A stretch of DNA of 25,144 nucleotides from a virus (taxonomy: Duplodnaviria > Caudoviricetes): the IMG/VR virus record IMGVR_UViG_3300022923_000094, positions 1-25,144 of that record; one strand, given 5' to 3'. The position numbers were made by a program, and so were the translations under genes. Positions 1,609-5,442 of the stretch are shown one piece after another (positions within the stretch are counted from its first letter, which is position 1; each line of letters begins with the position of its first letter). The notes beneath the pieces were generated by a model. It saw only the letters and a list, made by a program, of their open reading frames with translations. It did not search any database and had not been told where the DNA came from.

Positions 1609-1783
1609 GTTAGAGGTACTGATGCTTCCGAGTGTGATGGAGCAGGGGAACATTGCGTATGACAATGTGAAGGAATGGGACTTTAATTTGTCTCAAGGTC
1701 TTATGATTGAGTTGGAGGATGGGGCAGTGATTTACCTAAACCCGATGCATGTCATAGGTGTAGTTTGGAAAGAACTACAATAA
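1598..1783 (+). CDS. Hypothetical protein (61 aa)
   Basis: ATG 1598 with GGAG upstream; overlaps the previous stop and fills the gap. Confidence 0.55.
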   Translation: MTHRLEVLMLPSVMEQGNIAYDNVKEWDFNLSQGLMIELEDGAVIYLNPMHVIGVVWKELQ

Positions 1784-1786
1784 GGG

Positions 1787-1814
1787 GTTGACATGCGGAC
1801 CATCCGCATGCAAC
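1787..1814 (+). promoter_or_regulatory. Palindrome overlapping a -35 box upstream of the RAMP-like gene
   Basis: GTTG-A-CATGCGGA-CCA-TCCGCATG-CAAC; TTGACA at 1788-1793; no canonical -10 at 17 bp. Confidence 0.5.
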
Positions 1815-1857
1815 AAACAATTACTTTCAACTAGAAGCCAAGTAAGGAGAAAATATC

Positions 1858-2640
1858 ATGGCAACGAAGAAAGCACCACAAGAAGCGGCATTGGAAATTC
1901 AACCGTTGAAGCAGGGTCGCGTAAAGCTACGCATGATGGGCACGACCCCATTGTATTTTAACAGCATGAGTTCGAAGGCTATGCGTGATTTGTTGATTGG
2001 TGGCGGCAAGAAGACTGCTGCGCAGCGCAAAGAGATCAAGCACAATCCAGAGCAGGAGTACCGAGATTCGGTGTACAAGAAGCCGTTTGGGGAGACGTTA
2101 CTTTGTTTCCCTGCACCTGGTGTCAAGGGTGCGATGGCGACTGCTGCGTTGGAGACTGACGGTATTACGAAGACGAGTGTGCAGCGTTTGATCTTTTTGC
2201 CACAGACGCACGTTCAGATTTGGGGCAAGCCTCAGTTGAAGATTGACATGGTTCGGTCTGCGGACATGAACAAGACGCCAGACATGCGGACCCGTGCGTA
2301 CTTGCCGCGTTGGTGTGCGGAGGTTGACATTGCGTATGTGCAGCCGACTTTGTCTGCGTATTCGATTGTGTCGTTGTTGACGAACGCGGGATCGATTGTG
2401 GGTATCGGGGACTTCCGACAGGAGAAGGGCCGAGGATCGTTTGGCACGTTCCAAGTATTGACTGAGGACAGCATGGGTTCGTTCCAAGAGGAGTGGGATG
2501 AGTTGATGTTGGAGGGTCGAGATGTTCAGCAGGATGCGTTGGACAATCCAGAGTATGCGGATGATCAGACGGCGGAGCTTATGCAGTTCATGGCGGAGGA
2601 AAGATCCCGTCGGGATGTTACTCTCGTTGCTGCGGAATAA
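1858..2640 (+). CDS. Stand-alone Cas7/RAMP-like RNA-binding protein (candidate RNA-guided effector)
   Basis: N-terminal strand VKLRMMGTTPLYFN, FPAPGVKGAM (cf. the RAMP IPGSSLKG motif), C-terminal glycine-rich loop GIGDFRQEKGRGSFGTF; TAAGGAG RBS; adjacent to the periodic array. Confidence 0.75.
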   Translation: MATKKAPQEAALEIQPLKQGRVKLRMMGTTPLYFNSMSSKAMRDLLIGGGKKTAAQRKEIKHNPEQEYRDSVYKKPFGETLLCFPAPGVKGAMATAALETDGITKTSVQRLIFLPQTHVQIWGKPQLKIDMVRSADMNKTPDMRTRAYLPRWCAEVDIAYVQPTLSAYSIVSLLTNAGSIVGIGDFRQEKGRGSFGTFQVLTEDSMGSFQEEWDELMLEGRDVQQDALDNPEYADDQTAELMQFMAEERSRRDVTLVAAE

Positions 2641-2659
2641 TACTAGCATTAATAACAAC

Positions 2660-2685
2660 GGATCGGGGGCCGAGCGCCCCCATCC
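2660..2685 (+). other. GC-rich hairpin after the RAMP-like gene
   Basis: GGAT-C-GGGGGC-CGAGC-GCCCCC-ATCC; only a weak U-tract follows. Confidence 0.55.
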
Positions 2686-2820
2686 ATTTAGAGTTACAGC
2701 CGTGACCAACTGGCGAGAGGTGTCTCACATATGCACCGATGTTGGCGGCAAGCTGTGAGTGTCTTAACCGCAGCAATTAGAGGGAAGCTATTCTTCTCCG
2801 TTTCCTGATCTAATATTTTG

Positions 2821-3540
2821 GTCAAGGTTAGATATGTTGAGACGGTCTGGGTGAGGCGCGGTCGAGCACGTTCGGTTAAGGCGGGGTACGGTCCGGTTGG
2901 GTCAGGCGGTCCCGTTTCGTTTGGGTCTCACAGGGTTCGGCTGGGCAAGATGTGGTAAGTTTCGGTGTGGCGGTCAAGTTCAGGCGGGTCCACGTTTGTT
3001 ACGTTAAGGCGAGGTAAGGCGGTCGAGGTGTGACAAGGTCGGTTATGGCAAGTCGGGTTAAGACGGTCGGGGCACGGTCCGGTTTGGACGGGTTCGTTGA
3101 GTTGGGGCGCGGCACAGGCATGGCCCGTTTTGGTTTGGCGGTCTAGGTTGGGTACGGCGGTGTGTGTTGGGTTTCGTTGGGTCAAGGTTTGTTAAGGCGG
3201 TCGGGGTCATTCTAGGTGAGGCGTGATATGTTCGGTTAAGGCGTGGCCTGGTCACGGTACGGCGGTCTTGATTAGGTGCGTTCGGGTTAGGTTCGGTAGG
3301 GTGAGGACACGGTACGGCGGTCATGGAATGATAAGTTGAGGTATGTCGGGTTCGGTCAGGTCGTGTCATGGCGGTCTAGGTTGGGTGTGTTGCGTTGTGT
3401 CCCGTTGTTATGCGGTGTGTCATGGCGGTCCCGTTTGGGTGGGTCGTGTCATGGTTAGATCCGACAAGTTATGTCAAGGCGGTCGAGGCGCGGCATGATG
3501 AGTCACGTTGCGGTCAGTCGGGTCGCGGTACGGCGGTCAA
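2821..3540 (+). repeat. Non-coding array of GDY-NN pentamers punctuated by GGCGGTC; putative guide-RNA array (12 full units + 1 partial)
   Basis: GGCGGTC/GACGGTC at 2841, 2905, 2969, 3018, 3062, 3137, 3196, 3261, 3316, 3370, 3424, 3478, 3532; spacings 64,64,49,44,75,59,65,55,54,54,54,54 (5n+4, or 5n where one extra base is present); about 120 of 128 hand-parsed triplets fit G[G/T/A][C/T]. Confidence 0.9.
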
Positions 3541-3567
3541 CTAAACAGCTAGAAAAGGAGAAAAGAA

Positions 3568-4080
3568 ATGGCTGGTTTTCCAAAGAAAGAACGTCAAAGA
3601 ATTATTGACGATTACTTAGCGGCATCGGGCCGCAACATGTTTCATCCTGCGGAGTTCGTGGATTGGTTGGGTGGACAGCCTGACCATGAGGCGTATGAGT
3701 GGTTCTATGGGATGGAAGATCAAGAAGCTGCACGACAGTGGCGCATACAAATGGCGCGTCAGATGGCGAGTGGTCTGAGGATCGTGGTTCAAGAGTCGGA
3801 CCCCGAGGATCAGGTGGTGAGCATAAGCGTGAGGGAGTATCCTACGTTTATAAGTCCGGTGAGTTTACGCAAGAAGGGTGGCGGCTACGAGCGGTTTGAT
3901 CCTGACAGTGATGACTCGCAGCGTGAGTTGCGGCGACAGGCCGCGACGGCATTGGCGACCTGGTTGGGAAGATACCGTGGTTGTGCGGAGAATTTTGGGT
4001 TAAACTTGACAGCAATAGAGGAGATTGCGGAAGTTCTTAGAGAGAAAGGAGAGAGCGATGTTCAAGAAAATGTGGGATAG
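3568..4080 (+). CDS. Hypothetical protein, probable accessory of the RAMP/array locus
   Basis: AGGAG RBS at 3556-3560, just after the array; P.EFVDWL...PDHEAYEWF..EDQEAARQWRIQMARQ resembles a recurrent phage family; function unknown. Confidence 0.75.
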   Translation: MAGFPKKERQRIIDDYLAASGRNMFHPAEFVDWLGGQPDHEAYEWFYGMEDQEAARQWRIQMARQMASGLRIVVQESDPEDQVVSISVREYPTFISPVSLRKKGGGYERFDPDSDDSQRELRRQAATALATWLGRYRGCAENFGLNLTAIEEIAEVLREKGESDVQENVG

Positions 4081-4300
4081 GTTGACGCGCAAGCGACAGA
4101 CCAACCAGAAGCTGACGAGGAAGGAGCAGATCCTAGCTGAGTTGGACCGAGGAGTTGGGACTGCGAAGCAGTTGGCAGACCGCACTGGTTTAAAGCTGAC
4201 GATTGTGAGGGCGACGATGACGCAGTTACACAAAGCGGGAATGATCAGGGACACTGGCAAGAACGCGGGTCGTGAAGGTGTGTGGGAAGTTTCCCGATGA
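4058..4300 (+). CDS. Winged helix-turn-helix DNA-binding protein
   Basis: EQILAEL..GTAKQLADRTGLKLTIVRATMTQLHKAGMIRDTG...VW wHTH pattern; GGAG upstream of ATG 4058. Confidence 0.75.
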   Translation: MFKKMWDRLTRKRQTNQKLTRKEQILAELDRGVGTAKQLADRTGLKLTIVRATMTQLHKAGMIRDTGKNAGREGVWEVSR

Positions 4301-5267: not shown

Positions 5268-5271
5268 GCAC

Positions 5272-5442
5272 ATGGCTCGAAAGAAAATGAAAGAGAAGGA
5301 CAAGCAGCAGTTTCAGAATGTTGGCTTGTTAAAGGAGGACCACGATCTGCTTCGCAAGTTAGCGGATTCAGAACAGAGGTCCATGGCACGACAACTATCT
5401 GTATTGATTCGGAAAGCTGTTGCCGATACGGAACCTGCGTGA
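5272..5442 (+). CDS. Ribbon-helix-helix (Arc/CopG-like) regulator (56 aa)
   Basis: FQNVGLLKEDHDLLRKLADSEQRSMARQLSVLIRKA fits the strand-helix-RS-helix pattern. Confidence 0.75.
   Translation: MARKKMKEKDKQQFQNVGLLKEDHDLLRKLADSEQRSMARQLSVLIRKAVADTEPA

Follow-up and report, generated by a model that had tools for sequence, protein, structure and literature searches.

What information a phage might hold in an array of five-base steps is the question raised by positions 2821–3535 of the DNA analyzed here, a 25,144-nucleotide virus record that we refer to, at its full length, as the window. The 25-kb window contains phage replication and virion-type genes, including those for a helicase, a primase, and a DNA polymerase A. 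The polymerase is 46–53% identical to polymerases of HTVC023P-group marine phages, and no cultured close relative of the phage carrying the array was found. The array is flanked on the same strand by a 260-residue open reading frame (ORF) at 1858–2640 and a 170-residue ORF at 3568–4080. The same early region encodes a DNA methyltransferase fragment (1–312), a winged-helix protein (4025–4300), and a ribbon-helix-helix protein (5269–5442).

Architecture of the array and its flanking genes

The array consists of one partial and 12 full units on the plus strand, each ending in a register slip of one base. Its pentamer parse reaches 108.5, compared with −19.1 ± 5.2 (maximum −4.0) in 300 dinucleotide shuffles. 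Over positions 2821–3540 the autocorrelation at period 5 is 0.418 (z = 7.7; 500 base shuffles), and secondary peaks at lags 19, 24, 29, 34, and 39 match −1 slips. A preliminary description of the sequence had predicted this period and these phase slips, and its account of the unit boundaries also stands: all 13 units start with GTC-NN, 11 end in GGCG and two in GACG (at 2841 and 3062) when the partial unit is counted, the full units run for 8–14 pentamers (44–75 nt), and the unit at 3482–3535 reads exactly as given there. The grammar that it proposed, (GDY-NN)n, describes most of the array, with 121 of 129 triplets being GDY (53 of these GGY; ~45% of window triplets are GTY and 8% GAY). However, eight of the 129 are non-GDY, and the grammar is not exact because three of the 12 full units (3066–3140, 3200–3264, and 3265–3319) are one base longer through an internal +1 slip. 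The middle base of the triplet was said never to be C, which is true in the window (0/129) but not in related arrays, where 245 units contain 25 GCT triplets. Likewise, the NN strings are unique to each unit inside the array, as claimed, but the same strings recur in other phages. The interleaving of repeat and spacer at a 5-nt scale was correctly recognized; it is the VIPR code of earlier work. The novelty implied for the array was too high, because staggered arrays have already been named in print, as "1-nt overlapping, staggered vrRNA arrays" in the legend of fig. S18 of bioRxiv 10.64898/2026.04.26.720920. Here, the last G of the junction GGC-GG is common to the GTC of the next unit, so that neighboring guides overlap by 1 nt.

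No CRISPR-like tandem repeat, with direct repeats and contiguous spacers, was found in the window, and no cas genes were seen among its ORFs. The units abut via the 4-nt junction, with no tail, ribozyme, or hairpin between them and no invariant ~40-nt structured 3′ tail after the repeat tracts. In folding they do not surpass shuffled sequences (mean z = +0.56), and an Rfam search of positions 1700–3700, covering the array and its leader, identified no known RNA family. A scan for sigma-70 promoters returned 0 sites. The last unit (3482–3535) is followed by ~30 nt that contain the ribosome-binding site of the downstream gene.

The extra base often lies directly before a recurring GTC-AC GGT-AC ending, both in the window (3245–3264 and 3300–3319) and in related arrays, and this ending is also found as a mini-unit in one related locus (L008). 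Out-of-register recombination between a GGT-CA pentamer and the junction may account for the pattern. Across 59 arrays, C-ending triplets rarely precede an NN that starts with C (GGC-CG supplies 0 of 120 CG steps and GTC-CG two), and scaffold choice therefore depends on the neighboring NN, perhaps through avoidance of self-pairing or palindromic sites.

The product of the 260-residue ORF (1858–2640, plus strand) is a stand-alone RAMP homolog related to Vipr, built from an RRM core with thumb and G-loop, as judged from its sequence profile and its Cas7/Csm3 fold. Its best sequence match in the PDB is SUSP1 Vipr (36pp), with E = 0.032 for the sequence alone, E = 0.0027 when 37 close relatives are added, and E = 3.6e-8 for a profile of 106 sequences (profile A2; next match 0.31), in a link that spans only ~50 residues around the G-loop. 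A predicted model of the protein (pLDDT 96) retrieved Csm3/Cas7 RAMPs as the top Foldseek matches (E = 2.9e-6), and VIA comparison with these RAMPs gave Z = 10.1 and an rmsd of 4.2 over 150 aligned positions; Vipr was not among the matches in the fold library, which ends at 8 April 2026. Residues R146, D185, and R187 align with R138, D177, and R179 of SUSP1 Vipr and are kept in 105, 101, and 106 of the 106 family sequences, respectively, while F186 occupies the position of SUSP1 W178. In the SUSP1 structural study, R138, D177, and R179 contact the guide scaffold and W178 stacks on its second G (10.64898/2026.04.26.720927). The family of this protein is large, with 2194 representatives at E ≤ 0.001.

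Downstream of the array, the vap-like 170-residue partner gene (3568–4080, plus strand) adjoins 43 of 43 complete related arrays and has a homolog in Mycobacterium phage Brocalys, where it follows the vipr homolog (hhalign E = 6.9e-7). Searches with the partner protein identified no family, including no nuclease family or fold, and its model gave no match at E ≤ 0.001 in Foldseek, the sole fold search on it. Upstream, between vipr and the array, a G+C-rich hairpin is seen in the plus-strand sequence at 2660–2685, and similar hairpins with differing stems occur in the leaders of related loci. Between this hairpin and the array lies an optional insert of ~130 nt (2688–2819, plus strand), present in the window and in seven of 58 related arrays (L002, L006, L007, L010, L011, L025, and L027). 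It has conserved stems and variable loops, and four of its 38 predicted pairs show two-sided changes in six sequences. The insert could act as a promoter region, or as a structured RNA that defines the 5′ end of the array. In general appearance it may resemble a ribozyme, a likeness to which the Rfam search lends no support. Contigs from metatranscriptome libraries (two runs) cover vipr and parts of the array, but as assemblies they can show neither transcription nor RNA ends.

The target code and the elements that it matches

The NN strings were read with 0–3 skipped target bases (after bioRxiv 2026.04.26.720920), with at least 90% agreement counted as a match and with skips 0, 2, and 3 and shuffled guides as controls. 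In 84 satellite loci, a skip of 1 gave matches for 34 of 230 guides, compared with 0, 0, and 0 for skips 0, 2, and 3 and 0 for shuffles; these loci were reached via the HGGxSTG gene, which makes the count partly circular for guides against that gene. A guide-blind set of 100 integrase-centered stretches, chosen among 283 matches across 38 Ascidiaceihabitans and Planktomarina genomes, yielded 39/230 at skip 1, with 2, 0, and 3 at skips 0, 2, and 3 and 1 for shuffles. For six cultured T7-like roseophages the corresponding numbers were 9/230 at skip 1 and 0 for every other skip and for shuffles. The contiguous reading (skip 0) has no signal in the satellite-locus and integrase sets. Sixty strong guide–target pairs, chosen by their total match and not independent (variants of one unit are included), place the skip at the wobble position in 58 cases: 46 pairs by the longest open frame and 12 more once the HGGxSTG frame is preferred over an antisense shadow frame. 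The units match their targets by a two-match-one-skip code. Neither the window nor any of the 62 related vipr loci contains a target (0/228 at 90% with any skip), and no unit matches its own genome at more than 75%. The targets are competing mobile elements, both satellite-like elements and phages, and not self.

Seven of the 12 full units have a target: the HGGxSTG gene (twice), two satellite integrases, two terminases, and a virion gene. Unit 2 (2845–2908) matches the HGGxSTG-domain gene of Roseobacter satellite-like elements at 23/24. Its exact gapped pattern of 11 NN occurs at three places in 185,579 genomes, namely in Ascidiaceihabitans, in Planktomarina, and in a 2.8-kb contig of a Flavobacteriaceae bin, and the held-out first NN matches at 3/3. 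The one match of unit 2 in viral contigs was rejected as chance since its held-out NN fail. The HGGxSTG gene (NF041373), on which a literature search found no paper, has a P4-family primase and a tyrosine integrase as neighbors, a satellite-like layout. Unit 4 (2973–3021) matches the same gene at 17/18, at a site that lies 138 bp further downstream than that of unit 2. Unit 3 (2909–2972) matches a tyrosine integrase gene at 22/24, antisense and spanning its HDLRH motif, and unit 5 (3022–3065) a second tyrosine integrase gene at 16/16.

The remaining targets are phage genes. Unit 7 (3141–3199) is antisense to the large terminase of T7-like roseophages, a target that first surfaced in the guide-blind integrase set and that is matched at 20/22 in six cultured Roseobacter (CRP) phages and at 21/22 at 18 places in IMG/VR contigs. 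Unit 13 (3482–3535) matches a second large terminase family (PF03354/PF20441) at 18/20. Among the 120 listed of ~360 viral matches to its first eight NN, 107 are in this one family; the ninth NN is matched in 107 of the 120 listed and the tenth in one, and guides from related arrays hit the same terminase gene at 20/20 and 16/16. Unit 11 (3374–3427) is antisense to a phage virion-module gene. Its first nine NN gave 120 matches, 116 of them in one family of ~125-residue proteins that weakly resembles a PHROG head protein. The tenth NN is exact in 33 of the 120, and these 33 contigs match perfectly at 20/20; in roseophage CRP-6 the target is gp62, beside the portal gene, at 18/20.

Five full units are without a validated target. 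The first eight NN of unit 8 (3200–3264) fit the start of a T4-like ssDNA-binding gene, with 32 of 46 matches in that one family, but the held-out NN mismatch. The best matches of unit 6 (3066–3140; 16/20) and unit 12 (3428–3481; 16/20) lie within the shuffle range, as do those of unit 9 (3265–3319), and that of unit 10 (3320–3373; 17/20) equals the shuffle maximum. A reading of unit 9 as the catalytic motif of a serine recombinase found no support: eight NN gave two unrelated viral matches, 301 family genomes gave one match, not in a recombinase, against one control match, and 28 resolvase loci contained no match. The partial unit 1 (2821–2844) has four pentamers and GACG.

Satellite-like elements integrated in Roseobacter genomes (L066 7192–12061, L069 1179–6645, L085 10001–15711, and L195 9124–14594) form a family with a gene set of an integrase, an AlpA-like gene, a variable replicase (P4 primase, PolA-like, or another primase), and HGGxSTG. 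The HGGxSTG gene is their most heavily targeted, and ~950 metagenome stretches match its patterns. At L066 12677–13531, an ORF that resembles a reverse transcriptase, with a score below the cut-off of the group II intron RT profile, adjoins the satellite integrase. Two guides from related arrays (L048:2 and L058:9) match tRNA-Arg genes (L207 11590–11666 and L230 3392–3468) at 15/16 and 16/18, which are near-chance lengths, and a third (L044:6) matches at 19/20 a tRNA-like stretch, not called by ARAGORN, just upstream of a satellite integrase (L085, near 15779). The tRNA-matching guides are possibly aimed at integration sites. Because of the guide targets, we infer that the host is a pelagic Roseobacter.

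Unit boundaries, scaffold tolerance, and exchange of units

In the 60 strong pairs, the first NN of the unit matches the target at a rate of 0.98 and the last at 0.84, whereas the GG of the junction matches in 3/60. The junction is left unpaired and therefore bounds the target footprint, making it a true unit boundary. The NN match about equally after GGY (0.953), GTY (0.936), GAY (0.914), and other triplets (0.919), and the middle base of the scaffold is therefore relaxed. In SUSP1, perturbation of GGY abolished silencing (bioRxiv 2026.04.26.720920). F186 is a candidate cause of the relaxed middle base: two actinobacterial phage homologs with Trp at this position accompany mostly GGC arrays that slip at a different motif, GGCAGG, although two cases give no more than a hint.

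Sixty-two related viral loci were collected, of which 59 were parsed; three were omitted because their vipr ends at a contig end. An array is present in 58 of the 59, and together with the window they contain 313 unique units, which group into 170 families. Each of the 12 full window units recurs, in 4–19 loci, and L002 carries an array identical to that of the window. The 46 unique arrays contain 366 junction-class steps (GGCGGTC 268, GGCGGTT 48, GTCGGTC 28, GACGGTC 17, and five others) and 54 other 4-nt steps. Sixty-five units have internal slips, and a few of these stay in register with known targets across 4-nt steps, in a comparison that is uncontrolled and allows several parses. Thus a −1 slip alone may be insufficient to end a guide. 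Of 644 pairs compared between arrays, 615 keep their unit order, and unit turnover and sharing show no leader-end polarity (0.77, 0.73, and 0.74 by array third). Because shared units keep their order without polarity, they are gained and lost as whole modules, and they are exchanged as modules among related phages.

In Gordonia phage ODay (L184 3110–3290) and Mycobacterium phage Brocalys (L185 2121–2350), vipr homologs are annotated as hypothetical and accompanied by GGC-rich arrays of pentamers that lack annotation and have their slips at GGCAGG. Both phages are cultured and ready as test systems.

Probable guides for a Vipr filament and comparison with known systems

The skip-code matches to competitor genes indicate that the units are therefore likely guide RNAs for the neighboring Cas7-like protein. 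Membership of the locus in the VIPR family, as its staggered subtype, is close to certain. We put a probability of roughly 0.85 on the full reading, that this is a VIPR locus whose units guide Vipr filaments that silence satellites and rival phages. Points against it are the five units with no validated target, the short stretch of the protein that links it to SUSP1 Vipr by sequence, the many GTY and GAY triplets in view of the SUSP1 result on GGY, and the missing type II tail. In this process, the array would probably be transcribed together with vipr and its RNA cut or capped at or near the GGCGGTC junctions, giving guides of 44–75 nt. By analogy with SUSP1, one Vipr protomer per pentamer would hide the triplet and present the NN, and the resulting filament would bind double-stranded DNA and repress rather than cut, blocking the transcription, in co-infecting satellites and phages, of genes for integrases, replication, packaging, and virions.

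The same code and targets would also serve if the array RNA stayed uncut, with the slip punctuating filaments along one long transcript of multiplexed guides. The abutment of the units, with none of the elements named above between them, no folding beyond that of shuffles, and no Rfam family in the region, is what such a transcript would look like. However, the junction is a specific motif, with GGCGGTC and GGCGGTT supplying most of the 366 steps, and in some units the match apparently runs on through other 4-nt steps, so that the motif seems to be more important than the slip. The published legend, moreover, draws staggered arrays as processed RNAs, although outside those confirmed by sequencing (bioRxiv 2026.04.26.720920). 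We therefore regard an uncut transcript as unlikely. Recruitment of the 170-residue partner to cut or block target DNA, in place of transcriptional silencing, would fit its tight linkage to the array, its conservation as far as an actinobacterial phage, and the presence of late genes and both strands among the targets. Against this, the searches found no nuclease family or fold for the partner, and published nuclease partners occur only in types III–V, mostly in cellular defense (bioRxiv 2026.04.26.720920), which makes such recruitment quite improbable. Two minus-strand ORFs of 85 and 103 residues overlap the array, as they would if it were a low-complexity coding feature, or a DNA-level feature such as an origin or packaging site, and not a set of guides. 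We give this explanation hardly any credence: skip-specific, wobble-phased matches to mobile-element genes contradict it, and unit lengths of 44–75 nt would mostly break reading frames, yet units exchange freely.

Returning to guides for a Vipr filament, a bolder and speculative extension, which we consider unlikely, is that phages with tail-less staggered VIPR carry an immune memory that is self-contained, holds many guides, and can be updated, in which Vipr reads the GGCGGTY slip as a cut or cap signal and new gapped guides are written and swapped there without Cas1. If so, a single ancestral RAMP would do a Cas6-like job, and this memory would be recorded across the 59 close arrays by 170 unit families that tile conserved genes of satellites and phages. 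The hundreds of related units make the origin of such guides directly approachable, and cultured target phages are at hand for tests (CRP-114 and relatives, and CRP-6). The targets also map a conflict in abundant pelagic Roseobacter genera, whose parties are marine roseophages, T7-like and other phages, and satellite-like elements. With 12 guides, 4-nt junctions, and no tails, such an array would offer a compact format for multiplexing.

The system class and the register slip have already been published. The targets, the footprint bounds, and the scaffold tolerance appear to be additions, although published figures or data tables may already list this clade. The methods of bioRxiv 10.64898/2026.04.26.720920 allow scaffolds related to the GGY consensus. 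The same preprint mentions YNNNG-type degenerate scaffolds, and the natural targets given in its text belong to guides of types II, III, and V, with none for staggered arrays; another study describes 21 clusters with non-canonical triplets (2026.10.21.760802). A literature search on marine Roseobacter staggered vrRNA listed no VIPR paper among the best 10 of 602 matches, and the terms "staggered", "marine", and "tRNA" are absent from the available text of 2026.10.15.759431. For staggered arrays, the clade thus supplies evidence of natural targets, of the 1-nt overlap as a footprint limit, and of working GTY and GAY scaffolds.

Compared with published staggered VIPR (10.64898/2026.04.26.720920), through legend text alone and with no marine roseophage named in that text, the locus likewise has vipr and one accessory gene in a phage, no CRISPR array, and neighboring units that overlap by 1 nt, the published units having ~9–16 pentamer repeats. 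With Cas7/Csm3 of class 1 CRISPR it shares the RAMP fold and a guide array directed against mobile elements, but it differs in having no direct repeats, contiguous spacers, cas genes, or sharing polarity. The type II VIPR of SUSP1 and P. fulva, as described in 10.64898/2026.04.26.720927 and 10.64898/2026.10.15.759431, resembles it in the 1-nt skip code, in wobble-phased targets on both strands, in a satellite recombinase among the targets, and in the conserved thumb Arg and G-loop Asp/Arg. In contrast to type II, where SUSP1 has a ~40-nt pseudoknot tail, a Vipr of 202 residues, and Trp178, the locus described here has no tail, a protein of 260 residues, and Phe186; it carries 12 guides instead of the four in SUSP1 and P. 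fulva, uses a GDY scaffold in place of GGY, and splits its targets between satellites and several phage families.
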